Below, in pieces: positions 5,628-28,526 of a stretch of 64,000 bases of DNA; the stretch's first letter is position 1, and every line of letters starts with the position of its first letter. Below the pieces are notes generated by a model. It had not been told where the DNA came from. It worked only from the letters and a program-made list of their open reading frames with translations, and searched no databases. The translations under genes were made by a program, and so were the position numbers. The stretch lies in NCBI RefSeq assembly GCF_055900595.2, contig NZ_CM148325.1; one strand, given 5' to 3'.

Positions 5628-6320
5628 CTAGTGATAACCACGCGCGGTCATAAAATCCGTAATCGCTTTTTCTGCATCAACCAGCACCTTTTCCAGTGGC
5701 TGATTAGCATCGATATCAACCAGTTGTGCACCGCCAAAGGTTAACTGTGGCGTTATGGCAATCTTCCTCGCCAGCGATTCCCGTTTATGGTCGGGTTTAC
5801 GCGCGCAGGCAACTTCAAGGTCAACATTGAGTTTGATGACCAGATCAGGTTTATGGCTCGCCATCCAGTGAAACGCTTTACGTTCCTGGCTTGCCAGCCA
5901 TGAGACAAACCGGCCGCCTTCAACGTTAGGCGGGAACACTGTACCATCGTAAGCGCCAGGAATTTGGTCCTGAGGATAACGGTCGGTTAGAACAATTAAC
6001 CCGCGACGACGACAGGCAAGCATATGACGAAAGCGCAGTAAGCGACGGGCGACAAACGCTGTAATTACCAGCGCCGGAACTGGCCCAGGCAATTTTTTTG
6101 CTGTTTTCACCTGATTTCGTTCAATTGTTTTATGTAAGGATTTTCCCATCAACGGTAATTTTGTCACTGCACGACCGACATTTCCGGCCTGTTTTCCTAA
6201 ATGAACTCTTTCGGCAGCACCATATTTTTCGACAACGGTAATGAGATGTTCACACACCGTTGACTTGCCTGAACCATCGCTACCAATAACGGCAATTAAT
6301 GGAGGTGTTATTGACTGCAT
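5628..6320 (-). CDS. yghT: Uncharacterised P-loop ATP-binding protein, NMP-kinase-like fold
   Basis: 230 aa; N-terminal Walker [10 protein letters not shown]; internal LTDRYPQD (DRY-type motif); paralogous to the next two genes. Confidence 0.8.
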
Positions 6321-6493
6321 GAATATATCCTTTAATTTAAATATCCATTAAAAATATTTATTTGGTTAATATGTTTTTATGAAAGCGTAATTCAGGTCAA
6401 TGTCACAATTAACCATTGTCACAATAAGGTTGAACGGATATTCTGAGCACGGACCACGTAATATTCAATACATTATTTGCTGCCGGGTTTTTC

Positions 6494-7207
6494 GTGAATC
6501 AACGTAATATGTCAATAATTAATTCCACGCCAGTGCGTGTTATTGCCATTGTAGGATGTGATGGTTCAGGTAAATCGACCCTCACGGCAAGCCTGGTAAA
6601 TGAACTGGCAGCAAGAATGCCAACAGAACACATTTATCTCGGGCAATCGTCCGGGCGAATTGGCGAATGGATTTCACAGCTCCCTGTTATTGGCGCACCT
6701 TTTGGGCGTTATTTGCGAAGTAAAGCGGCACATGTGCACGAAAAGCCCTTAACACCGCCTGGCAATATTACTGCGCTGGTTATCTATCTGCTTTCCTGCT
6801 GGCGGGCGTACAAGTTTCGCAAAATGTTGTGTAAAAGCCAGCAAGGCTATCTGCTCATCACCGACCGCTACCCGCAGGTTGAAGTGCCGGGTTTTCGCTT
6901 TGATGGCCCGCAATTGGCAAAAACCACGGGCGGTAACGGCTGGATAAAAATGTTAAGGCAGCGCGAGCTGAAGCTGTACCAATGGATGGCGTCTTATTTG
7001 CCCGTATTGTTGATTCGTCTTGGCATTGATGAACAAACCGCGTTTTCGCGTAAACCTGACCATCAACTGGCGGCGTTACAGGAAAAAATCGCCGTTACGC
7101 CGCAACTGACATTCAATGGCGCCGGGATCCTTGAACTGGATGGTCGGCAACCAGCCGATGAAATTATGCAAGCGTCACTACGCGCAATTCACGCCGCGCT
7201 TTCCTGA
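6494..7207 (+). CDS. yghS: Uncharacterised P-loop ATP-binding protein, NMP-kinase-like fold
   Basis: 237 aa; Walker A GCDGSGKST; ITDRYPQ; C-terminal SRKPDH...TPQLTF shared with yghT. Confidence 0.8.
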   Translation: MNQRNMSIINSTPVRVIAIVGCDGSGKSTLTASLVNELAARMPTEHIYLGQSSGRIGEWISQLPVIGAPFGRYLRSKAAHVHEKPLTPPGNITALVIYLLSCWRAYKFRKMLCKSQQGYLLITDRYPQVEVPGFRFDGPQLAKTTGGNGWIKMLRQRELKLYQWMASYLPVLLIRLGIDEQTAFSRKPDHQLAALQEKIAVTPQLTFNGAGILELDGRQPADEIMQASLRAIHAALS

Positions 7208-7238: not shown

Positions 7239-7997
7239 ATGGATGCACTACAAACACAAACTGTTAATAGTACAACCGTGCCGCAGCCCAACTACATTCC
7301 GGGGCTGATTGCGGTGGTCGGGTGTGATGGCACCGGTAAATCCACGCTGACCACCGACCTGGTGAAATCGCTGCAACAACACTGGCAAACCGAGCGCCGC
7401 TATTTGGGGCTGCTCTCCGGCGAAGACGGCGACAAAATCAAACGATTGCCGTTGGTTGGCGTCTGGCTGGAACGGCGACTGGCGGCCAAATCCTCGAAAA
7501 CCCAAAGCATGAAAACCAAATCTCCAGCGCTATGGGCGGCGGTGATTATGTACTGCTTCTCGCTGCGAAGAATGGCGAATCTACGCAAGGTTCAGCGACT
7601 GGCGCAAAGTGGCGTTCTGGTGGTCAGCGATCGCTTCCCGCAGGCTGAAATTTCGGGCTTTTATTATGACGGACCGGGGATTGGCGTCGAGCGCGCGACC
7701 GGGAAAATCAACCAATTTCTGGCGCAGCGCGAGCGACAGTTATACCAACAAATGGCGCAGTATCGTCCTGAATTAATCATTCGTTTGGGGATTGATATTG
7801 ATACTGCCATCTCCCGCAAGCCTGACCATGACTATGCCGAGCTGCAGGACAAAATCGGCGTCATGTCGACGATTGGCTATAACGGCACAAAAATTCTTGA
7901 GATTGATTCCAGAGCGCCCTACAGCGAAGTGCTGGAACAGGCACAGAAGGCGGTTTCTCTGGTTGCCATCGTTTCTGACCGCCGAAGTTTAACTTAA
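7239..7997 (+). CDS. yghR: Uncharacterised P-loop ATP-binding protein, NMP-kinase-like fold
   Basis: 252 aa; Walker A GCDGTGKST; VSDRFPQ; SRKPDH motif; third paralog. Confidence 0.8.
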   Translation: MDALQTQTVNSTTVPQPNYIPGLIAVVGCDGTGKSTLTTDLVKSLQQHWQTERRYLGLLSGEDGDKIKRLPLVGVWLERRLAAKSSKTQSMKTKSPALWAAVIMYCFSLRRMANLRKVQRLAQSGVLVVSDRFPQAEISGFYYDGPGIGVERATGKINQFLAQRERQLYQQMAQYRPELIIRLGIDIDTAISRKPDHDYAELQDKIGVMSTIGYNGTKILEIDSRAPYSEVLEQAQKAVSLVAIVSDRRSLT

Positions 7998-8042: not shown

Positions 8043-9392
8043 TTGGCGGGTTTTAACATCAAACATTGGTTTGCAGATGGCGCGTTTCGCACCATTATTC
8101 GCAATAGCGCCTGGTTAGGCTCCAGTAATGTCGTGAGCGCTTTGCTGGGTCTGTTGGCGCTCTCGTGTGCCGGTAAAGGGATGACGCCCGCCATGTTTGG
8201 CGTACTGGTGATTGTGCAATCGTACGCCAAGTCGATCAGCGATTTTATTAAGTTTCAGACATGGCAGTTGGTGGTGCAGTACGGAACGCCAGCCTTGACC
8301 AACAATAATCCGCAGCAATTTCGCAATGTCGTCTCATTTTCCTTCTCGTTGGATATCGTCAGCGGCGCGGTGGCGATTGTCGGCGGCATTGCCTTACTCC
8401 CTTTTCTTTCCCATTCATTAGGTCTGGATGACCAAAGCTTTTGGCTGGCAGCGCTGTATTGCACGCTCATTCCTTCAATGGCTTCCTCCACGCCGACCGG
8501 CATTCTGCGTGCGGTAGATAGCTTCGACTTAATTGCTGTACAGCAGGCGACGAAACCTTTTCTGCGCGCAGCGGGGAGCGTCGTTGCCTGGTATTTTGAC
8601 TTTGGTTTTGCGGGTTTTGTTATTGCCTGGTACGCCTCGAATCTTGTTGGCGGCACCATGTACTGGTGGTTTGCCGCACGTGAATTACGCCGCAGAAATA
8701 TCCATAACGCGTTCAAATTGAATCTGTTTGAGTCTGCCCGACACATCAAAGGCGCGTGGAGTTTTGTCTGGTCAACCAACATTGCCCATTCCATCTGGTC
8801 GGCGCGTAATTCGTGCAGCACAGTGTTGGTGGGGATCGTGTTAGGACCCGCTGCCGCCGGGTTATTTAAAATCGCCATGACATTCTTCGACGCCGCCGGA
8901 ACGCCAGCGGGTTTACTAGGTAAAAGTTTTTACCCAGAGGTGATGCGTTTAGATCCGCGCACCACCAGACCGTGGTTGTTAGGCGTGAAGTCCGGTTTAC
9001 TGGCGGGCGGAATCGGTATTCTGGTGGCGCTCGCGGTGTTGATCGTCGGCAAGCCGCTCATTTCGCTGGTGTTTGGCGTTAAGTATCTCGAAGCGTATGA
9101 CCTGATTCAGGTGATGCTGGGCGCAATTGTGATTTCGATGCTGGGCTTCCCACAGGAGTCATTGCTATTGATGGCGGGAAAACAGCGTGCTTTTCTCGTG
9201 GCGCAAACCATCGCCTCAATCGGCTACATCGTATTGCTGTTCATGTTCTGTCATCTGTTTGGCGTGCTGGGGGCTGCATTTGCTTACTTCGCTGGGCAAT
9301 GTCTGGATGTGGTGCTCTCGCTAATTCCAACCTTAAAGGCATTTTTTCAGCGCCATTCCTTGCTTTATAACGCAGCCGGAGAGAAATCCTGA
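8043..9392 (+). CDS. yghQ: MOP/Wzx-like polysaccharide or lipid flippase family inner-membrane protein
   Basis: Polytopic membrane protein (many hydrophobic helices across 449 codons). Start uncertain: the track uses a TTG at 8043; the first in-frame ATG is at 8181 but would remove the first predicted TM helix. Stop overlaps the next start (TGATG at 9389-9394). Confidence 0.75.
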   Translation: MAGFNIKHWFADGAFRTIIRNSAWLGSSNVVSALLGLLALSCAGKGMTPAMFGVLVIVQSYAKSISDFIKFQTWQLVVQYGTPALTNNNPQQFRNVVSFSFSLDIVSGAVAIVGGIALLPFLSHSLGLDDQSFWLAALYCTLIPSMASSTPTGILRAVDSFDLIAVQQATKPFLRAAGSVVAWYFDFGFAGFVIAWYASNLVGGTMYWWFAARELRRRNIHNAFKLNLFESARHIKGAWSFVWSTNIAHSIWSARNSCSTVLVGIVLGPAAAGLFKIAMTFFDAAGTPAGLLGKSFYPEVMRLDPRTTRPWLLGVKSGLLAGGIGILVALAVLIVGKPLISLVFGVKYLEAYDLIQVMLGAIVISMLGFPQESLLLMAGKQRAFLVAQTIASIGYIVLLFMFCHLFGVLGAAFAYFAGQCLDVVLSLIPTLKAFFQRHSLLYNAAGEKS

Positions 9393-10228
9393 TGATGAGA
9401 AAATATTTCCCGCTTGAGGCTAGCGAGCGTCTATTTGTTGCGATTGAAGAAGATGATGTCGTTGATGCACAGGTCAGTTTGCCGCCGACTATCGCACTAA
9501 GTTGTACCACCGAAATCATCCATGATAATTACGCGTTATGCCTGAAATTCTGGCTGGATGGTGTTAATCGTCAGGAGCTACTGCGTTTAATCCGCAAACA
9601 GGCGAAAGGCGATGAGCTGACGACAGACGAGCGCAAAAAGTATAAATACATGCGAGCGCGCTACAAGCATCTGCGCTTTGCGCAACGGCTGTATTTAAAG
9701 AAGCATCAGGCCGGATTTTTATTCGGCAAAACGACCGTTTTTTTGGGGCGTTTTCAGGACGGCTTTCGTAACGGTAAGAAAAATATTGTGTCGTATTACG
9801 GCAACCTGTTACGGGTTTATTTAAGCTCTCCGGTCTGGTCGTTGGTGAACTATTCATTACGCCATAGCCAGTTAGAAAGCGTAAGCGGTTTTATTGCCTA
9901 TCGGCAAAAGCAAATGCATACCCTGAAAGAGATAATTGCCAAACCGCGACTAACTGGCAGGGAATTTCATGATGTGCGAAAAATCATCAGCCAGCAGGTT
10001 TCTTATTACGACACCCTAAGATCGCTTGATCCTGAAAATAAAGAGGCGTTACAGATTTCCCGCTTCCTCGCCGCCATTAATGGCCTGATGGGGGATAAAC
10101 ACGACGACATGGTGGCGGATGATATGGAAAACCGCCAGTCGTATGATGCACCGATGGCGCTGGATAGCGATATTCGTCAGCGCTTAGAACTGCTGATTTC
10201 GCGTTTCCCACTCTATCCGGAGCAATAA
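9392..10228 (+). CDS. Hypothetical protein (278 aa), translationally coupled between yghQ and a YtfJ-like gene
   Basis: Intact ORF with 1-nt overlaps to both neighbours (yghQ stop / its ATG; its stop / next ATG); no motif I can assign; basic, soluble-looking. Confidence 0.6.
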   Translation: MMRKYFPLEASERLFVAIEEDDVVDAQVSLPPTIALSCTTEIIHDNYALCLKFWLDGVNRQELLRLIRKQAKGDELTTDERKKYKYMRARYKHLRFAQRLYLKKHQAGFLFGKTTVFLGRFQDGFRNGKKNIVSYYGNLLRVYLSSPVWSLVNYSLRHSQLESVSGFIAYRQKQMHTLKEIIAKPRLTGREFHDVRKIISQQVSYYDTLRSLDPENKEALQISRFLAAINGLMGDKHDDMVADDMENRQSYDAPMALDSDIRQRLELLISRFPLYPEQ

Positions 10229-10788
10229 TGCCATCTCGTTGGATTTTCGCTCTGATCATCGCACTCTTAGCGCCAGGCGCGGTGGCACACAATTTCGTCA
10301 CTGGTAAAACGGTTACCCCTGTTTATATCCAGGAAGGCGGTGAGTTGCTTCTGAATAGCGACGACGAAATTCACTACCAAAAGTGGAACAGCACACAGCT
10401 GGCGGGAAAAGTCCGCATTATTCAGTATATCGCCGGGCGTAAGTCGGCGAAGAAAAAGAACTCACTGTTAATTAAAGCGGTTGAAGCGGCAAACTTTCCG
10501 CAGGATCGTTTTCAGCCCACCACCATTGTGAACACCGATGATGCCATCTTTGGTACCGACTATTTTGTCGTTGGCAAAATCGAAAAAAATAAACGCCGCT
10601 ATCCATGGGCGCAATTCGTTATTGACGGCAATGGACAGGGACGTGTTGCCTGGCGCTTGCCGGAGCAGAGTTCAACCATTCTGGTGCTGAATAAAAACGG
10701 GCAAATTCAGTGGGCAAAGGACGGCAGCCTGACGCCGGAAGAGGTAGATCATGTCATTGCGCTGGCGCAGAAGCTGATCAATGAATAA
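10228..10788 (+). CDS. YtfJ-family periplasmic protein
   Basis: 186 aa with N-terminal signal peptide (MPSRWIFALIIALLAPGAVAHNF). Strong resemblance over the whole length to remembered E. coli YtfJ (...KTWNS.QL.GKVR..Q.IAGR.SAK..N..LI.A...A..P.DR.Q.TTIVNTDDAI...YPW.QF..D.NG... QWAKDG.LTPEEV...). Confidence 0.7.
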   Translation: MPSRWIFALIIALLAPGAVAHNFVTGKTVTPVYIQEGGELLLNSDDEIHYQKWNSTQLAGKVRIIQYIAGRKSAKKKNSLLIKAVEAANFPQDRFQPTTIVNTDDAIFGTDYFVVGKIEKNKRRYPWAQFVIDGNGQGRVAWRLPEQSSTILVLNKNGQIQWAKDGSLTPEEVDHVIALAQKLINE

Positions 10789-10818
10789 AAAACTCAAAGG
10801 ATTGAGGGCGTTAGTGAG

Positions 10819-11889
10819 ATGAAGCTGGTTGAACACTACATCATGCGTGGTACGCGCCGTCTGGTGCTGATTATCGTCGGTTTTCTGATCTTTATTTTCG
10901 CCAGCTACTCCGCACAGCGTTATCTGACCGAAGCGGCAAATGGGACATTAGCTCTTGATGTTGTGCTGGATATCGTTTTCTACAAAGTGCTGATTGCACT
11001 GGAGATGCTGTTACCTGTTGGACTATATGCTTCAGTTGGCGTGACGCTAGGGCAAATGTATACCGACTCGGAAATTACCGCTATCTCCGCGGCGGGGGGC
11101 AGTCCGGGACGCTTGTACAAAGCCGTTCTTTATCTGGCGATACCGCTAAGTATTTTTGTCACCCTTCTGTCGATGTATGGTCGTCCGTGGGCTTATGCGC
11201 AGATTTATCAACTGGAGCAACAGTCACAGTCGGAGCTGGATGTTCGCCAGTTGCGGGCAAAGAAATTTAACACTAACGATAACGGACGAATGATCCTTTC
11301 GCAGACGGTTGATCAGGATAATAATCGCCTGACTGACGCGCTGATTTATACTTCTACTGCCAATCGAACCCGCATTTTCCGCGCCCGTTCGGTTGATGTG
11401 GTTGACCCATCACCTGAGAAACCGACCGTTATGTTGCATAACGGGACCGCCTATCTTCTCGATCATCAGGGGCGTGACGACAACGAACAGATCTACCGTA
11501 ATCTGCAATTACATCTGAATCCGCTGGATCAAAGCCCTAACGTCAAACGCAAAGCAAAATCGGTCACGGAGCTGGCGCGCTCCGCCTTTCCTGCCGATCA
11601 TGCCGAACTGCAATGGCGACAAAGCCGTGGCCTGACAGCATTGTTGATGGCGCTGCTGGCCATTTCATTAAGTCGGGTAAAACCGCGGCAAGGGCGATTT
11701 TCAACGTTATTGCCACTGACGTTGCTGTTTATTGCCATTTTTTATGGCGGCGACGTCTGCCGTACGCTGGTGGCTAACGGCGCGATTCCCCTCATTCCTG
11801 GTTTGTGGTTAGTACCCGGACTCATGCTAATGGGCCTGCTGATGCTGGTCGCACGCGACTTCTCTTTGCTGCAGAAATTTTCCCGATGA
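10819..11889 (+). CDS. LptF/LptG-family (YjgP/YjgQ) permease, paralog 1
   Basis: 356 aa; N-terminal 3-TM bundle, central soluble (periplasmic beta-jellyroll-like) region, C-terminal TM bundle with RQGRFS motif reminiscent of LptF/LptG (NPRQGR); located outside the canonical lptFG locus. Confidence 0.75.
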   Translation: MKLVEHYIMRGTRRLVLIIVGFLIFIFASYSAQRYLTEAANGTLALDVVLDIVFYKVLIALEMLLPVGLYASVGVTLGQMYTDSEITAISAAGGSPGRLYKAVLYLAIPLSIFVTLLSMYGRPWAYAQIYQLEQQSQSELDVRQLRAKKFNTNDNGRMILSQTVDQDNNRLTDALIYTSTANRTRIFRARSVDVVDPSPEKPTVMLHNGTAYLLDHQGRDDNEQIYRNLQLHLNPLDQSPNVKRKAKSVTELARSAFPADHAELQWRQSRGLTALLMALLAISLSRVKPRQGRFSTLLPLTLLFIAIFYGGDVCRTLVANGAIPLIPGLWLVPGLMLMGLLMLVARDFSLLQKFSR

Positions 11890-12965
11890 ATGTTTTCAGC
11901 CGCTATTTAATCCGTCATCTCTTTCTCGGTTTTGCCGCCGCCGCAGGGCTATTGCTGCCGCTTTTTACCACCTTCAACCTGATTAACGAACTGGATGATG
12001 TCGGCCCGGGCGGTTATCGCTGGACCCAGGCGGTGCTGGTGGTGCTGATGACCTTACCGCGCACACTGGTCGAACTTTCGCCGTTTATCGCCTTATTGGG
12101 AGGGATTGTCGGCCTGGGGCAACTATCGAAAAACAGTGAGCTTACCGCCATTCGCAGCACGGGGTTTTCTATCTTCCGTATTGCACTGGTGGCGCTGGTT
12201 GCCGGGATATTGTGGACTGTTTCGTTAGGCGCGATAGATGAGTGGGTGGCGTCGCCATTGCAGCAACAGGCGCTGCAAATCAAATCGACTGCCACCGCGT
12301 TGGGGGAGGACGATGACATTACCGGCAATATGCTTTGGGCCAGGCGCGGTAATGAATTTGTGACGGTGAAATCGCTGAACGAGCAGGGCCAGCCTGTGGG
12401 CGTGGAGATATTTCATTATCGCGACGATCTCTCGCTCGAATCCTACATTTTTGCACGCAGTGCCTCCATTGAAGACGACAAAACATGGATCCTGCATGGT
12501 GTGAATCATAAAAAATGGTTGAATGGCAAAGAAACGCTGGAAACATCAGATAATCTTACCTGGCAATCGGCCTTCACCAGTATGAATCTTGAAGAGTTAT
12601 CGATGCCGGGAAATACTTTTTCTGTCCGTCAACTTAATCATTACATCCATTATTTGCAGGAAACTGGGCAACCCAGCAGCGAATACCGCCTTGCACTGTG
12701 GGAAAAACTGGGACAACCCATCCTGACCCTGGCGATGATTTTGCTGGCTGTGCCGTTTACCTTTAGTGCCCCGCGTTCGCCTGGGATGGGTAGCCGTCTC
12801 GCTGTAGGCGTCATCGTGGGCTTACTTACCTGGATCAGCTATCAAATCATGGTCAATCTGGGATTGCTATTTGCGTTGAGCGCACCTGTTACCGCGCTCG
12901 GTTTACCGGTAGCGTTTGTGCTGGTGGCGTTGAGCCTGGTGTATTGGTATGACAGACAACATTAA
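11886..12965 (+). CDS. LptF/LptG-family (YjgP/YjgQ) permease, paralog 2
   Basis: Start set at ATG 11886 (MNVFSRYLIRHLF...), overlapping the upstream stop by 4 nt (ATGA); same TM-soluble-TM architecture as the upstream gene. Confidence 0.75.
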   Translation: MNVFSRYLIRHLFLGFAAAAGLLLPLFTTFNLINELDDVGPGGYRWTQAVLVVLMTLPRTLVELSPFIALLGGIVGLGQLSKNSELTAIRSTGFSIFRIALVALVAGILWTVSLGAIDEWVASPLQQQALQIKSTATALGEDDDITGNMLWARRGNEFVTVKSLNEQGQPVGVEIFHYRDDLSLESYIFARSASIEDDKTWILHGVNHKKWLNGKETLETSDNLTWQSAFTSMNLEELSMPGNTFSVRQLNHYIHYLQETGQPSSEYRLALWEKLGQPILTLAMILLAVPFTFSAPRSPGMGSRLAVGVIVGLLTWISYQIMVNLGLLFALSAPVTALGLPVAFVLVALSLVYWYDRQH

Positions 12966-12999
12966 ACCCGCCGTGGCGCAACACCACAGCGGGCTCACA

Positions 13000-14172
13000 T
13001 TACTGCTTCAGAGTAGCGAACGCTTGAATGATGGCATCAATTTGCTCACGACTGTGGGCAGCGTTTACGCTACAGCGCAGCAGCGTGATGCCTGCAGGCG
13101 CGGCAGGTGGCAGGATAAGATTCACATAAACGCCCAGCGAAATAAGCTCGCGCCAGATGCGTAAACCTTCCTCTTTCGAACCGATTATTACTGGCACTAC
13201 CGGGCTAATATGTGAACTTAACTCATAATCCAGTTTTTGCAGACCGTCATACAGATGGTTGGCATTATCCATCAGCTTTTGCCGCAACTCTGGTTGTGAG
13301 GCAATGGTTCTTAACGACGAGCGCACGGTCGCAATGCAGGACGGAGAAGGAGAGGCGGTAAAAATATACGGGCGGCTGCCGTAGCGCAACACTTCCATCG
13401 CTTCCGAACCGACAGCAAAACCGCCAATCGAGGCCAGACTTTTACTGAAGGTACCAACGATAATATCCACATCATCTTCAACGCCAACGGCTTCAGCCAG
13501 TCCGCGCCCCGTTGCGCCTAACACGCCAAACGAATGCGCTTCATCGACAATCAAATAACCACCGAGACGACGTTTGATATCAACAATTTCCGCCAGCGGC
13601 GCAACGTCACCGAGCATACTGTAGATGCCTTCAACGATGATAATCGCCTCTTTTGCCCGTTCACCGAGGCGAACCATGCGCCGTTCCAGATCTTTAGCAT
13701 CGTTATGGCGGAAACGAATAATTTCCGCGCCACCGAGAGAACAGGCGTCATAAATACTGGCGTGGCTGTCGGCATCCAGTAACACCACGGCGTTATGGTC
13801 GGCAAGTGCGCTGATGACGCCTAAATTAGCGGTATAACCGGTTGAAAAAACGATAGCGGTAGGGCGATTAAAAAACTCGGCGATCTCTTTCTCTAACGCC
13901 AGATGCGGCGCATAACTGCCGTTTGCCATACGAGAACCGGTGGTGCCGGTGCCTTGGGCCGCTAACGCTGCCTGACCTTCGGCGATGGCATCATGATTAA
14001 AGGTTAAACCGAGATAATTATTGGTCCCGGCCAGAATCACTTTTTTATTGCCGATCCGACCTTCGGTGGCGGAATACACTTCATCAATACAGGTGCCAAA
14101 CGGTGTTAACCCGTTGTCACTAAATTGCAGTCGCTCGCCAGCAAGGCGCGCATATTTATCGTATAGCCCCAT
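13000..14172 (-). CDS. PLP-dependent alpha-oxoamine synthase (serine palmitoyltransferase / BioF / Kbl family)
   Basis: 390 aa; family-typical N-terminal GSRMANGSY.....LE.E.A.F, and PLP-lysine motif ...IVGTFSKSLASIGGF...; start overlaps the stop of the upstream carrier-protein gene. Confidence 0.85.
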   Translation of the reverse strand: MGLYDKYARLAGERLQFSDNGLTPFGTCIDEVYSATEGRIGNKKVILAGTNNYLGLTFNHDAIAEGQAALAAQGTGTTGSRMANGSYAPHLALEKEIAEFFNRPTAIVFSTGYTANLGVISALADHNAVVLLDADSHASIYDACSLGGAEIIRFRHNDAKDLERRMVRLGERAKEAIIIVEGIYSMLGDVAPLAEIVDIKRRLGGYLIVDEAHSFGVLGATGRGLAEAVGVEDDVDIIVGTFSKSLASIGGFAVGSEAMEVLRYGSRPYIFTASPSPSCIATVRSSLRTIASQPELRQKLMDNANHLYDGLQKLDYELSSHISPVVPVIIGSKEEGLRIWRELISLGVYVNLILPPAAPAGITLLRCSVNAAHSREQIDAIIQAFATLKQ

Positions 14173-14420
14173 TATTTATTCTCCAGCCATGGAAGTAGTG
14201 TTTCCATTAATTGCGCAGGGGTTTTGACATCCAGCAGAATATTAATAGGAATGGAAATATCGAATCTGTCTTCCAGCATCATTAAGAGATCCATCACTTT
14301 GATCGACTCCAGGCCAAGATCGTTGACGAGATCGCTGTCGGGCTTAATTTCCACACCGTTTTCGACCAAATCCTGTAAACAGGAAAGGATGTAATCCATT
14401 ACTATTTCACGATTTACCAT
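14172..14420 (-). CDS. Acyl carrier protein (phosphopantetheine-binding)
   Basis: 82 aa, acidic, with DLGLESIKVMDLLMMLEDRF resembling the ACP DSL/ESx attachment-site helix. Confidence 0.8.
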   Translation of the reverse strand: MVNREIVMDYILSCLQDLVENGVEIKPDSDLVNDLGLESIKVMDLLMMLEDRFDISIPINILLDVKTPAQLMETLLPWLENK

Positions 14421-14451
14421 AGAAACGTTAACACACCTTTAAACAAGACAA

Positions 14452-15366
14452 TCAAAATAGCCCGTTGCGTAATGCGTGTTCCAGGCTAATCCCGGGAAAC
14501 CAATTAATATCTTCAGAAATACGGTTATTACTTGCTGACCAGTCGGCGTGGGTTAATTCACGGATTTTCGAGCGGGTCAGCATAGGTTCTTTACCTGCCA
14601 GGCGACTCAACGCGGTACTGATATCCGCAAGGCAGGTGAGTACCGACAGAGGAATACCAACCATTCGAACGGAACCGCAACGGGCGTCGGCGGCAAGTTG
14701 CTGTACGCGTTGCCAGTCATAGCCGCCGGCGACGCCATCGCATAATTCATAGGTTTGCGTCTGTACAGTTTCGGCGCTTAACCACTGCCCCACGGCTTGC
14801 GCGAAATCGGTGACGTGCAGGAAAGAGAGCTGTGTATCTGGCGCACCAAGTCGTGGCAGCAGGCCGCGCAGCATCCAGTCAAACAGCGGTTTTAACTCTT
14901 TATCGCCGGGACCATACACGGCTGTCGGGCGAAAAATGCCCAGCGTAATTTCGTCAGCCATTGCGGTCAGTCGTTGTTCGGCGACGTGTTTGGAATTTGC
15001 GTACCAGGAGAGTTCGGGATGACGCGCCGCCAGCGAAGAGATAAACAGAAAACGTTGGCAAAAGCCGCTCTCTTTTGCCGCTTGCATCAGGCGCAGGCTG
15101 CCGTCAACGTTACAGCGGGTAAAAATCTCTTCTTTGTGTCCGCGCACTTGTCCGGCGCAATGGACCACCGCGCTGGCTCCGGCAACCAGTTCGCTAAGCG
15201 AATGTGTATCTTCCAGCGAACCGCGCACCCAGATGAGATTATCATTGACGTGAGCGCGGGCAGTACGCGTCAATGCGCGAACGTGAAAGCCGCGGGCGAG
15301 CAGGTTATCGATAATATATTTACCGATAAACCCGGTAGCGCCCGTCACCGCGACAGTTTGATTCAT
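14452..15366 (-). CDS. NAD(P)-dependent epimerase/dehydratase-family (extended SDR) reductase
   Basis: 304 aa with N-terminal Rossmann motif VAVTGATGFIGKYI; 4-nt overlap with the upstream AMP-ligase gene. Confidence 0.8.
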   Translation of the reverse strand: MNQTVAVTGATGFIGKYIIDNLLARGFHVRALTRTARAHVNDNLIWVRGSLEDTHSLSELVAGASAVVHCAGQVRGHKEEIFTRCNVDGSLRLMQAAKESGFCQRFLFISSLAARHPELSWYANSKHVAEQRLTAMADEITLGIFRPTAVYGPGDKELKPLFDWMLRGLLPRLGAPDTQLSFLHVTDFAQAVGQWLSAETVQTQTYELCDGVAGGYDWQRVQQLAADARCGSVRMVGIPLSVLTCLADISTALSRLAGKEPMLTRSKIRELTHADWSASNNRISEDINWFPGISLEHALRNGLF

Positions 15367-17111
15367 GCCAGGGATTCCTGCACATGAAGGCTTGCAGCAT
15401 AAGCCTTCTGATAACGTTTTTTCGCTTCCGCACGGGCAGGCTTGCCGGAGGACGTTCGGGGAATACTGTGGGGCGGCAACAGATCGATAGCCGCGGTTAC
15501 GCCAAATTCGCTTTGGATCCGTGCTGCCAGTGCGTGGATAAGCTGCCCACGACGTTCTTCGTCGCTGATCCTACACTGGATCTGCAGAATGATTTTTTCC
15601 TGGGCGGTAACAAAAGCAATCGCATCGCCAGAATGAATTTCCGGTTCCTGTTCCGCAATATATTCAATATCCTGCGGCCAGATATTACGGCCACGAATAA
15701 TAATCAGATCTTTAATGCGTCCGGTGACATACAGATAACCGTCCAGCAGATAACCGAGGTCGCCGGTATCTAACCAGCCCGTCGCGGCAATCTCGTCTTG
15801 CGAAACCTGGTCGCCAAAGTAACCGCTCATCAGGCTGGGGCCGGAGATGCAAATATGGCCTACCACACGTTCCGCGACCGGCATACCTGCTTCATTGCGG
15901 ATTTCAATGCCATGTTCCGGCAACGCTTTACCGCAGTTGACGAAAGTCGATACGGCGCGTGTTTCAGCACCCGGCGCGACGGCTTTGCCCTGATATTCAA
16001 GGATGTCGCGATCCACTTCGTTAACCACAACCCCGGAGGCTTCATCAGAGAAGCTGACAGCCAGCGCATTTTCTGCCAGTCCGTAGCACGGCATGAACGT
16101 TTTATCGTCAAAGTTAACCTGACGGAAACATTCAGCGAATTGATGGAGTTGTTCTGCGGAGATGGGTTCTGCACCAATACCAGCGACGCGCCAGCAGGAA
16201 AGATCCAGTTCAGCGAGATCTTTTTCATTCACGCGGCGCTGGCACAATTCATAGCCAAACGGCGGCGCAACGGAAACGGTGCCGCGATTTTTACTGATCA
16301 ATTTAAGCCATTGCAGAGGACGCATGGCAAAATCCTGAGTGCGCAAATAATCTACTGAAAGCTGCGTGGCGACGGGGGTCAGGAGAAAGCCGACCAGTCC
16401 CATATCATGGTAGAAAGGCAGCCAGGAGACGCAGCGGTCGCCAGGGCGTAATTTAATGCCATCGTGGCTTATAGCACGTAGATTAGCCATCACTTCGCGA
16501 TGGGTGATAATGACGCCACGGGGAAAACGGGTGCTGCCGGAGGTGTACTGGAGGTAGGCGATATCGTTCGGAACTGGATGCTGGAGTGCAACATCGGCTT
16601 CCGGTAATGCCTTAAACCAGGCGTGGCTTAAAACATGTAATTCGGGGTTGTTATGCGTAGCGGCATTGACCAGTGGCAACCACTCATCACCAGTGATAAT
16701 GGCTGCGGGCTGGCAACTTGCCAGTAAACCCTGCAGTTTGGCGCTCCAGGAATCCCGCTGACCGATGCCCATTGGAATCGCCAACGGGACGGCGACTAAG
16801 CCGGCATACTGGCAGGAAAAAAAAGCCTCTACGAACCCGCTACTGGTTTCGGCAATCAGCGCCACGCGATCGCCTTTTTTCAGGTTCAGCGATAACAACC
16901 GCTTCGCACCAGCTTCGGCACGCGCTTTTAACGTCTGATATTCCAGTTGATCTTCAAGTTGGCAACGTCTGTCATAAAAATTCATTCCGGCGCTACTCAG
17001 AGCGGCGTAGTCCAAAGCATCAACCAGCGTTGGAAAATCGGCATAGCGCATAGGTAGGGAATGCGTAAAGATTTTATTAGACATATACACCACGAAAAAA
17101 TTGGATATCAA
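15363..17111 (-). CDS. AMP-dependent synthetase/ligase (fatty-acyl-AMP ligase / acyl-ACP synthetase-like)
   Basis: 582 aa with the adenylate-forming signature YTSGSTRFPRGV (consensus YTSGSTGxPKGV) and downstream GYG/ETG-type core motifs; exact start (17111 vs 17084) uncertain. Confidence 0.85.
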   Translation of the reverse strand: MISNFFVVYMSNKIFTHSLPMRYADFPTLVDALDYAALSSAGMNFYDRRCQLEDQLEYQTLKARAEAGAKRLLSLNLKKGDRVALIAETSSGFVEAFFSCQYAGLVAVPLAIPMGIGQRDSWSAKLQGLLASCQPAAIITGDEWLPLVNAATHNNPELHVLSHAWFKALPEADVALQHPVPNDIAYLQYTSGSTRFPRGVIITHREVMANLRAISHDGIKLRPGDRCVSWLPFYHDMGLVGFLLTPVATQLSVDYLRTQDFAMRPLQWLKLISKNRGTVSVAPPFGYELCQRRVNEKDLAELDLSCWRVAGIGAEPISAEQLHQFAECFRQVNFDDKTFMPCYGLAENALAVSFSDEASGVVVNEVDRDILEYQGKAVAPGAETRAVSTFVNCGKALPEHGIEIRNEAGMPVAERVVGHICISGPSLMSGYFGDQVSQDEIAATGWLDTGDLGYLLDGYLYVTGRIKDLIIIRGRNIWPQDIEYIAEQEPEIHSGDAIAFVTAQEKIILQIQCRISDEERRGQLIHALAARIQSEFGVTAAIDLLPPHSIPRTSSGKPARAEAKKRYQKAYAASLHVQESLA

Positions 17112-17454
17112 AAATAAAATGACAATAATGCGGTGGATTATATAGGCATAAAAGATAAATGAGATAGTATTTTCATCAGTGTGAAAATGAACATTGATTT
17201 AAATAATGAGTTTGAGTTTTTTGTTTTTATTGTGAATGATATTTAATTTATGAATGTATTAAGAAGAAGCCTTGTCCGGTCGCCTTAAATCGACAAAAGG
17301 CATTGTGGCGCTTCTGTGTAGTCTCTGACCTTATCGTAATCATTAATAAATGCTATTTATTCGTCGTTTGTATTCATTGGGTTGATTATTAAGGTGCCGT
17401 TCGTTGCTGTTGCAACCTGTTTGTCACCGTTAATTATTTGTTACCCACAGAACT

Positions 17455-18597
17455 ATGGAATGCGATCTGCTGATGATTAAAATTGAAAAAGTAATTAATA
17501 AAAATGACCTTAAGGCATTTATCGCTTTTCCGTCATCACTTTATCCCGACGATCCAAACTGGATACCCCCTTTATTCATTGAACGCAACGAGCATTTGTC
17601 TGCGAAAAATCCGGGGACGGACCATATCATCTGGCAGGCGTGGGTGGCAAAAAAAGCCGGGCAGATAGTTGGGCGAATTACCGCGCAAATCGATACCTTG
17701 CACCGTGAGCGTTACGGTGAAGATACCGGTCATTTCGGCATGATTGACGCCATTGATGATCCGCAGGTTTTTGCCGCGTTGTTTGGCGCAGCGGAAGCGT
17801 GGTTGAAGTCACAAGGTGCAAGTAAGATCAGCGGTCCTTTCAGCCTGAATATCAATCAGGAAAGCGGATTACTGATTGAAGGTTTCGATACACCACCCTG
17901 TGCGATGATGCCGCACGGTAAACCGTGGTATGCCGCGCATATTGAACAATTGGGTTATCACAAAGGCATTGATTTACTAGCGTGGTGGATGCAGCGAACC
18001 GATCTCACTTTCTCTCCGGCGCTAAAAAAACTGATGGATCAGGTGCGTAAGAAGGTGACCATTCGCTGCATCAATCGCCAGCGGTTTGCCGAAGAGATGC
18101 AGATCCTGCGTGAGATTTTCAACTCTGGCTGGCAGCACAACTGGGGATTTGTGCCGTTTACCGAACATGAATTCGCGACTATGGGCGATCAACTTAAATA
18201 TCTGGTGCCGGACGATATGATCTACATCGCTGAGATTGATTCTGCACCCTGCGCGTTTATTGTTGGCTTGCCAAACATCAACGAGGCGATTGCCGATCTG
18301 AACGGATCGCTCTTTCCCTTCGGCTGGGCAAAATTGCTGTGGCGTTTAAAAGTCAGCGGTGTGCGAACTGCGCGAGTACCGCTGATGGGCGTGCGGGACG
18401 AGTATCAGTTTAGCCGCATCGGCCCGGTGATTGCGCTGTTATTGATTGAAGCCTTACGCGATCCGTTTGCCCGCCGGAAGATCGATGCGCTGGAAATGTC
18501 ATGGATCCTCGAAACCAATACAGGCATGAATAACATGCTGGAACGCATTGGGGCAGAGCCGTACAAGCGTTACCGATTGTATGAAAAGCAGATTTGA
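17455..18597 (+). CDS. yghO: YghO-family protein, intact; possible GNAT-like N-acyltransferase
   Basis: 380-aa intact ORF where K-12 (as I recall) carries only a yghO pseudogene next to glcC; acyltransferase assignment is my inference from fold-like sequence features, not a motif I can pin down. Start could also be Met at 17473. Confidence 0.65.
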   Translation: MECDLLMIKIEKVINKNDLKAFIAFPSSLYPDDPNWIPPLFIERNEHLSAKNPGTDHIIWQAWVAKKAGQIVGRITAQIDTLHRERYGEDTGHFGMIDAIDDPQVFAALFGAAEAWLKSQGASKISGPFSLNINQESGLLIEGFDTPPCAMMPHGKPWYAAHIEQLGYHKGIDLLAWWMQRTDLTFSPALKKLMDQVRKKVTIRCINRQRFAEEMQILREIFNSGWQHNWGFVPFTEHEFATMGDQLKYLVPDDMIYIAEIDSAPCAFIVGLPNINEAIADLNGSLFPFGWAKLLWRLKVSGVRTARVPLMGVRDEYQFSRIGPVIALLLIEALRDPFARRKIDALEMSWILETNTGMNNMLERIGAEPYKRYRLYEKQI

Positions 18598-28080: not shown

Positions 28081-28526
28081 TCATTTACATTACTCTGTCT
28101 TATTAATGGAAAATTATTTCCCGCTTTATTATCCATGTGGCAATAATGTTTCGCGTTCAGATAACATGCTAAATAATTAAGAGCGTGAGAACATCTATTA
28201 TTTATCACGCAAAACAAGTCAGTATTAATTATGTTCGCTTGATGAGCAAACACCGTTCTATCTGTTGCTTTTGCAATCTTAATCGTCAAGACTACCAACA
28301 AATTTATATAGTTACGTTGTGAAAGGTTGTTAATTTTTTGTTTATTGAAATTTCGTAAAAATAACCAGCCAGACATCGAATAGGGGTTATTCTTATAAAT
28401 TTCACCTGTTTTTCTATCAATGATGCCGTTTTCTTAAGAATGGAGGAAGTTATTAAAGAAGATAAAGCATAAAACTATTTCCCCGGTTACGAATCTTTTA
28501 ACTTTGTTTTGTCACTTGCGTTATTA

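Follow-up and report, generated by a model that had tools for sequence, protein, structure and literature searches.

Caulobacter crescentus has, besides its canonical LptF/LptG, a second such pair (CCNA_01214/CCNA_01213, the same genes as CC_1156/CC_1155) within its sphingolipid locus, where there is no lptB. Olea-Ozuna et al. 2024 (PMC11324152) named CC_1168, CC_1156 and CC_1155 LptC2, LptF2 and LptG2, and proposed that these proteins, together with a putative flippase, carry phosphosphingolipids to the outer membrane. In April 2026, Uchendu, Isom and Klein (bioRxiv 10.64898/2026.04.12.717747) reported that deletion of Caulobacter lptF2, lptG2 or lptC2 is possible only in an spt or cpgB mutant background, that the pair is essential only when the anionic sphingolipid is made, and that in pull-downs LptF2 and LptG2 bring down each other as well as the single LptB. 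Both studies propose that the pair draws sphingolipid out of the inner membrane with energy supplied by the housekeeping LptB; the Caulobacter cargo is ceramide diphosphoglycerate. The 2026 study also finds lptF2/lptG2 in many alpha- and gammaproteobacterial sphingolipid loci, and its Figure 2B draws the locus of E. coli UTI89 as homologous. Here we analysed a 64,000-nucleotide stretch of an E. coli chromosome (contig NZ_CM148325.1, assembly GCF_055900595.2; hereafter the window) that carries such a pair, referred to as lptF2 and lptG2. We consider it likely that the two encode the transmembrane subunits of a second Lpt-type ATP-binding cassette (ABC) extractor, dedicated to a sphingolipid and sharing LptB.

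The idea of a dedicated sphingolipid extractor that borrows LptB is already published for Caulobacter and is not new. An earlier reading made from the letters of the window (the sequence-only reading) had proposed a second Lpt-like extractor for an amphiphile other than lipopolysaccharide (LPS), but missed that the class of cargo, a sphingolipid, can be identified and that the idea stands in the literature, including the drawing of the UTI89 locus. Two other systems frame the comparison. The canonical E. coli LptB2FG(C) shares with the pair its family, its layout, the F-then-G gene order with overlapping stop and start, and the coupling glutamates. The LptFG of Sphingomonas wittichii (Swit_3905/3906) also sits with sphingolipid genes and is thought to move sphingolipid, but it is the sole LptFG of an organism that makes no LPS, whereas the E. 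coli pair coexists with a full LPS system.

A second LptF/LptG pair distinct from the canonical one

The first gene scored 317.5 bits against the NCBIfam equivalog model for LptF, TIGR04407 (cut-off 230), and the second 307.2 bits against that for LptG, TIGR04408 (cut-off 240). Scores against the opposite model were only 64 and 84 bits, and thus one protein is F-type and the other G-type. Residues 4-343 of LptF2 align end to end with a solved LptF chain (E 1e-31) and residues 3-351 of LptG2 with a solved LptG chain (E 3e-43). The hydropathy of both follows the canonical arrangement of three transmembrane segments, a hydrophilic domain of ~170 residues and three further segments; the segments above threshold around the hydrophilic stretch number 3+3 in LptG2 and 3+2 in LptF2. 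PF03739 (YjgP/YjgQ) is precomputed on homologues of the pair. These data confirm that the two are full-length LptF- and LptG-family permeases, and that the adjacent, overlapping YjgP/YjgQ-family genes with a transmembrane-periplasmic-transmembrane layout had been read correctly from the sequence. Although the mechanical open reading frame (ORF) of the second gene opens earlier, at GTG 11805, the true start is almost certainly ATG 11886, since LptG homology begins at residue 3 of that product, RefSeq annotates the same start and this ATG shares an ATGA with the stop codon of lptF2; with this start, the two genes overlap by 4 nt.

RefSeq/PGAP gives the canonical pair and lptF2G2 the same name, LPS export ABC transporter permease LptF/LptG, because the paralogues exceed the equivalog cut-offs. 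The two pairs are nevertheless distinct. LptF2 and LptG2 are 29% and 28% identical to K-12 LptF and LptG, respectively, and the canonical K-12 lptF-lptG adjoins pepA-holC at 4.486 Mb, whereas lptF2G2 occupies a chromosomal site between pitB-yghT and glcC. Canonical lptFG DNA was found in 5425 of 5426 complete E. coli genomes. By comparison, lptF2G2 is present in 4131 of the 5426 (76%), as a single copy in each and near full length in 4105, and the sampled matches were all annotated lptF/lptG. The pair is a diverged paralogue kept in addition to the canonical lptFG and not the housekeeping pair of the strain, so that its placement away from the canonical locus, as the sequence-only reading had it, stands, and the possibility that it is simply the strain's own lptF/lptG does not hold. 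As to the allele in the window, only 39 of the 4131 genomes carry one at least 99% identical to it, and its synonymous divergence (dS) to other Escherichia lineages is 0.17-0.84.

In K-12, the region corresponding to window positions 9100-17400 (NC_000913.3, 3128000-3146000) holds an IS5 element between a truncated yghQ and yghO; the end of yghQ, hyp278, ytfJ2, lptF2, lptG2, spt, acpR, cerR and aasR are missing. The comparison points to an IS5-associated deletion as the cause of the loss, and this absence explains why the pair is unfamiliar from K-12 work.

The absence of the pair from K-12 and from ~24% of complete genomes, together with the lack of an E. coli sphingolipid in the literature searched, could be taken to mean that the locus is silent or decaying in E. 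coli and that the pair has no current function. The ratio of nonsynonymous to synonymous substitution rates (dN/dS) within Escherichia argues against this, being 0.06-0.09 for lptF2 and 0.04-0.05 for lptG2, and at most 0.27 for the compared neighbours YghQ, hyp278 and YtfJ2 (0.03-0.09 for yghQ). Both permease genes are under purifying selection. In addition, the near-full-length copies noted above are not what a decaying locus would show, and Padilla-Gomez et al. (PMC9386255) found Spt, AcpR and AasR of E. coli BL21 to be enzymatically active. A functionless pair is thus improbable, and the reading of lptF2G2 as a working sphingolipid extractor is the better fit.

Linkage to the ceramide pathway

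The pair forms the end of a seven-gene operon that converges on spt-acpR-cerR-aasR, with yghO beyond (Table 1). The stop codon of spt lies 35 nt from that of lptG2, and the five ceramide genes all fall within 5.7 kb. According to PMC9386255, the other two genes of the ceramide pathway correspond to the epimerase-like gene and to yghO, the latter being aca/CC_1154; no Pfam match was found for YghO, and its relatives are co-localised with lptF2G2 in most of the loci surveyed. What the sequence-only reading had called a lipid-biosynthesis operon is therefore the complete five-gene bacterial ceramide pathway. The neighbours which that reading had listed are also as it described them, namely a YtfJ-family protein, the MOP-flippase-like YghQ and the minus-strand genes for Spt, an acyl carrier protein, a reductase and an acyl-AMP ligase.

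To define the family more widely, 1.84 billion representative proteins were searched, giving 201 LptF2 relatives at E <= 1e-30. Bit scores in this search did not cleanly divide the LptF2 clade from canonical LptF, a pepA-linked canonical LptF appearing already at 140 bits, and separation of the two therefore needed a two-reference comparison, which is clear for the F subunit and weak for distant G subunits. All 83 locus-derived LptF2 proteins, 81 of them from spt/bCerS loci, have a score against E. coli LptF2 at least 1.6 times that against E. coli LptF, whereas for a pepA/holC-linked LptF, canonical by synteny, the order is reversed.

A pattern scan built from an 8-sequence alignment and run on one genome per species returned 80 LptF2-like loci, which were scored by tblastn with 13 proteins of the E. 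coli locus; full 10-kb flanks were available in 50. An LptG2-like gene lies immediately downstream of LptF2, F then G on one strand, in all 80. None of the 50 fully flanked loci is without a ceramide gene; spt is present in 48 of them and the complete set of five in 41. Each of the 12 loci in which no ceramide gene was found has incomplete flanks. The loci belong to Enterobacterales, Pseudomonas, Azotobacter, Nitrosomonas, Desulfobacteraceae and uncultured Gammaproteobacteria; no alphaproteobacterium is among the 80. The retained paralogue and its linkage to ceramide genes favour the dedicated second extractor, for an amphiphile made by the adjacent lipid operon, that had been proposed from the sequence.

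The locus is also mobile. A whole Enterobacterales-type locus, carrying an extra glycosyltransferase of family GT2, adjoins tra genes on a conjugative 301-kb IncFIB plasmid of Klebsiella michiganensis (NZ_CP106839.1); the annotation of the surrounding 25 kb contains neither an ABC ATPase nor lptB. A Pseudomonas-type locus is found on pPNP1, a 125-kb IncP plasmid of Pseudomonas sp. JS425, with a 576-aa ABC protein beside spt and an acylglycerol-kinase-family gene after lptG2. On both plasmids, as in A. vinelandii and P. luteola, lptF2-lptG2 (52-64% identity) stands beside spt-acpR-cerR-aasR as in E. coli. The Pseudomonas-type loci differ in having the acylglycerol-kinase-family gene, other head-group genes and the 576-aa ABC protein, where E. 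coli has YghQ, hyp278 and YtfJ2. That the permeases, but no motor, travel with the locus from host to host is consistent with reliance on the conserved LptB of the recipient.

Since YghQ, hyp278 and YtfJ2 share the operon with lptF2G2 and form a block in Enterobacterales, and as YghQ bears the RefSeq label lipopolysaccharide biosynthesis protein, the pair might instead export some other amphiphile of the YghQ/hyp278/YtfJ2/YghR/S/T set, such as a lipid-linked glycan or a phospholipid derivative, with the ceramide genes as mere neighbours. However, LptF2G2 lies beside spt/bCerS in Pseudomonas, Azotobacter, Nitrosomonas and other taxa without the YghQ-hyp278-YtfJ2 block. The linkage persists where the block does not, and thus the constant partner of LptF2G2 is the ceramide pathway, which leaves export of another amphiphile quite unlikely and a sphingolipid as the favoured cargo.

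Predicted coupling to LptB and residues of the cargo cavity

Glu84 of LptF and Glu88 of LptG in E. coli are the coupling-helix glutamates that engage the groove of LptB. Alignment places Glu85 of LptF2 at the position of LptF Glu84, where it is invariant in 83/83 clade members, and the glutamate equivalent to LptG Glu88, which is Glu85 in E. coli LptG2, is kept in 80 of 81 LptG2 members; the glycine that follows the coupling-helix glutamate is invariant in the clade. No ABC ATPase is encoded within the lptF2G2 locus. The sequence-only reading had stated that the window holds no cognate ABC ATPase, which is correct for the locus; the only ABC ATPase of the window lies at 51863-52549, in a KpsM-containing capsule-type island 39 kb from lptF2G2. 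One full lptC-lptA-lptB copy was found per E. coli genome at the sensitivity of blastn, which a remote lptB paralogue could escape. The suggestion that the pair borrows LptB gains from the conserved glutamates, from a locus that travels without lptB, including on a conjugative plasmid, and from the Caulobacter co-purification; for E. coli the partnership would follow by extension.

In the cavity, the equivalents of the basic residues Arg33 and Lys317 of LptF and Lys62 and Arg136 of LptG are retained, and the hydrophobic positions are largely conserved relative to canonical LptFG. By contrast, Lys34, Lys40, Lys41 and Arg133 of LptG, listed as LPS-phosphate-binding residues in PMC6744409, are replaced by Asn, Asp, Asp and Leu in E. 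coli LptG2. Lys34, Lys40 and Lys41 contact the lipid A phosphates and the inner core, and the K34E substitution is lethal (PMC6744409). Throughout the LptG2 clade (81/81), position 34 is Asn, Asp or Glu and positions 40 and 41 are Asp or Glu.

We also considered whether this acidic rim is a signature of sphingolipid specificity, which was ruled out by canonical LptG proteins of other organisms: a pepA-linked canonical LptG of another taxon has Asp/Gly/Asp at 34/40/41 and Gln at 133, and Acinetobacter LptG has Thr/Ser/Asn and Asn, respectively. The Lys34/Lys40/Lys41/Arg133 set therefore defines only the enteric/Vibrio-type LptG. At Lys34, Lys40 and Lys41 the two E. coli paralogues do genuinely differ, and this argues mildly against an LPS cargo in E. 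coli.

A function of the pair in LPS export, as a back-up or in a specialised role such as export of a modified lipid A or an LPS glycoform, is the least probable of the explanations considered, for although both proteins pass the equivalog cut-offs, carry the RefSeq names lptF/lptG and keep the four basic cavity residues, ceramide genes and not LPS genes adjoin them in every fully flanked locus, identity to the resident pair is just 28-29%, canonical lptFG is kept in essentially every genome with or without lptF2G2, and three lysines of LptG have become Asn, Asp and Asp in LptG2, albeit by a difference that is not specific to the clade.

Proposed route, accessory genes and meaning

In light of these data, we propose that Spt, AcpR, AasR, CerR and YghO (bCerS) would make ceramide in the cytoplasm or on the inner leaflet, that locus-specific enzymes may modify it further, and that a flippase, for which the MOP-family YghQ is the most plausible candidate, would carry it across the inner membrane. 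The LptF2-LptG2 heterodimer, with its conserved coupling helices docked on a dimer of the housekeeping ATPase LptB, would then extract the lipid from the outer leaflet, and its periplasmic beta-jellyroll domains would hand it toward the outer membrane. No bridge component is encoded in the locus, and for this reason the lipid would probably cross by the ordinary LptC/LptA/LptDE bridge. For E. coli, we infer the transport and the lipid product, and with them the cargo, the partnership with LptB, the flippase role of YghQ and the use of the LptA/LptDE bridge, from these comparisons.

Several observations weigh against a sphingolipid extractor in E. coli. No report of a sphingolipid from wild-type E. 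coli was found in the literature searched, and K-12 has lost the locus without an obvious laboratory defect. Caulobacter has an LptC2, which the E. coli locus lacks, although no LptC2 interaction was detected in Caulobacter itself (bioRxiv 10.64898/2026.04.12.717747). In distant clade members, LptG2 resembles canonical LptG at least as closely as it does E. coli LptG2. Caulobacter and Azotobacter LptF2/LptG2 share only 24% identity (PMC11324152 supplement), whereas the Azotobacter proteins are 52% and 49% identical to those of E. coli, and because of this the transfer of function from Caulobacter to E. coli would rest on synteny more than on sequence. Finally, lptG2 of A. vinelandii and P. luteola is followed by three ORFs that the S2E table of PMC11324152 gives as orthologues of CC_1159-CC_1161 (CCNA_01217-CCNA_01219; CpgA/B/C), and none of the three has a homologue anywhere in the 64-kb window. 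As CpgA/B/C-type genes are absent, the E. coli cargo would differ from the one studied; it is probably not ceramide diphosphoglycerate, and a different head group is suggested.

The window follows the gene order hyb-yghU-gss-pitB-yghT...yghO-glcC-glcDEFGB, and its positions 10000-14000 match E. coli strain FDAARGOS_448 at 100% identity. Successive members of the seven plus-strand genes yghS-yghR-yghQ-hyp278-ytfJ2-lptF2-lptG2 overlap by 1 nt or 4 nt or stand a short gap apart. Upstream of yghS, at 6416-6444, is a promoter-like hexamer pair, and the hairpin between lptG2 and spt is the strongest terminator-like match in 5.5-19 kb (16 pairs, 9 of them G-C); counts of promoter- and terminator-like sites in that interval were not above those of shuffled sequence. 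The PADLOC defence-system models returned nothing relevant.

Table 1. Features of the lptF2G2 locus, in window coordinates.
Feature	Position	Strand	Basis
yghT, P-loop protein, first of three paralogues, divergent from the operon	5628-6320	-	RefSeq; Walker A motif
yghS, P-loop protein, first gene of the plus-strand operon	6494-7207	+	RefSeq; family searches
yghR, P-loop protein	7239-7997	+	RefSeq; generic Pfam P-loop matches only; no ABC signature
yghQ, MOP-family (Wzx-like) putative lipid flippase	8043-9392	+	weak NF007773 match
hyp278, 278-aa soluble all-alpha protein, CHAD-like fold	9392-10228	+	
ytfJ2, secreted YtfJ-family protein, cysteine-free thioredoxin fold	10228-10788	+	TIGR01626, 210.8 bits
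lptF2, LptF-type permease paralogue	10819-11889	+	356 aa, ATG start; TIGR04407; alignment to solved LptF
lptG2, LptG-type permease paralogue	11886-12965	+	359 aa, ATG start, ATGA overlap with lptF2; TIGR04408; alignment to solved LptG
Hairpin, 16-bp stem, probable bidirectional terminator between lptG2 and spt	12963-12997	.	
spt, serine palmitoyltransferase	13000-14172	-	NF047599, 593.5 bits (cut-off 500)
acpR, specialised acyl carrier protein	14172-14420	-	RefSeq; PMC9386255
cerR/epi, NAD-dependent reductase of the ceramide pathway	14452-15366	-	RefSeq; PMC9386255 (ECD_02852)
aasR, acyl-AcpR synthetase (fatty acyl-AMP ligase)	15363-17111 (RefSeq start 17051)	-	NF006624, 874.6 bits
yghO, bCerS-type N-acyltransferase	17455-18597	+	RefSeq; PMC9386255

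In place of LptC2, the E. coli locus holds YghQ, a CHAD-like protein, YtfJ2 and three P-loop proteins. YghQ, which has multiple hydrophobic segments, matches the MOP flippase family NF007773 over residues 18-436 at 34 bits, below the cut-off. YtfJ2 is an additional YtfJ paralogue that belongs specifically to the sphingolipid locus of Enterobacterales; it begins with a hydrophobic signal-like segment, has no cysteine in its sequence, and Ala69, Gly70, Arg71 and Lys75 are invariant. Its model (predicted local distance difference test, pLDDT, 79.8) gave Foldseek matches to thioredoxins of the ResA/TlpA/CcmG type at E ~1e-7. No family match was found for hyp278. In the 80-locus survey, YghQ, hyp278 and YtfJ2 are confined to Enterobacterales and co-occur as a block, and YghT co-occurs with the locus in Enterobacterales and in some Pseudomonas. 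The similarity of YghT/S/R to dTMP kinases is weak (for YghT, 25-26 bits against cut-offs of 83-193). Relatives of YghT/S/R, at 36-44% identity, are present in some Pseudomonas sphingolipid loci.

YtfJ2 and hyp278 were each considered as a hidden LptC/LptA-like beta-jellyroll (an LptC2) and ruled out, the former by its predicted thioredoxin fold and the latter by its all-alpha CHAD-like bundle. YghR/S/T were ruled out as the missing ATPase, since beyond a Walker A motif they carry no ABC signature, and their matches are either weak ones to dTMP kinases or generic ones to P-loop proteins. They were also ruled out as a ceramide kinase of the Caulobacter type, since that kinase has a GGDG ATP-binding motif and sphingosine-kinase-type domains (PMC10331486).

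Elsewhere in the window, 28509-44468 holds a 1525-aa ORF followed by a type II secretion gene set (GspE at 37594-39087, TIGR02533 705.6 bits), unrelated to lptF2G2. An AT-rich block at ~46000-58000 (28-35% GC against ~50% elsewhere) contains a KpsM-like permease (46003-46839), a 1248-aa ORF without an NCBIfam match (47951-51697) and the ABC ATPase mentioned above, which is TagH/Wzt-like; the block looks like the serotype-specific region of a capsule locus.

Taken together, the order-specific genes and the absent CpgA/B/C-type genes allow a further reading, which we hold tentatively and regard as possible but doubtful: Enterobacterales including E. coli may make an undescribed surface sphingolipid, other than ceramide diphosphoglycerate, through an order-specific module, YghQ and LptF2G2 with the host LptB. 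The head group would be built or handled by the kinase-like YghT/S/R, the CHAD-like protein (a polyphosphate-binding fold) and YtfJ2; YghQ would flip the lipid and LptF2G2 with the host LptB would export it. YtfJ2 could then be a new periplasmic accessory of an Lpt-type machine, replacing LptC2, and a pathway with its own extractor and without a motor would be spreading on conjugative plasmids.

The route of bacterial sphingolipids to the outer membrane was unknown until very recently, and the value of the present finding lies in confirmation and context, with the E. coli cargo and the Enterobacterales-specific accessory genes as the residual interest. The shared lptF/lptG name that RefSeq gives to both pairs is misleading. 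If a second LptFG shares LptB, a single essential motor, itself an antibiotic target, would serve two competing routes of envelope-lipid export. As the pair is found in uropathogenic and production strains (UTI89 and BL21) and not in K-12, the best-developed Lpt genetics and biochemistry are directly applicable to it. Should E. coli make a sphingolipid, it would be a surface lipid that varies between strains and that work on K-12 has overlooked.

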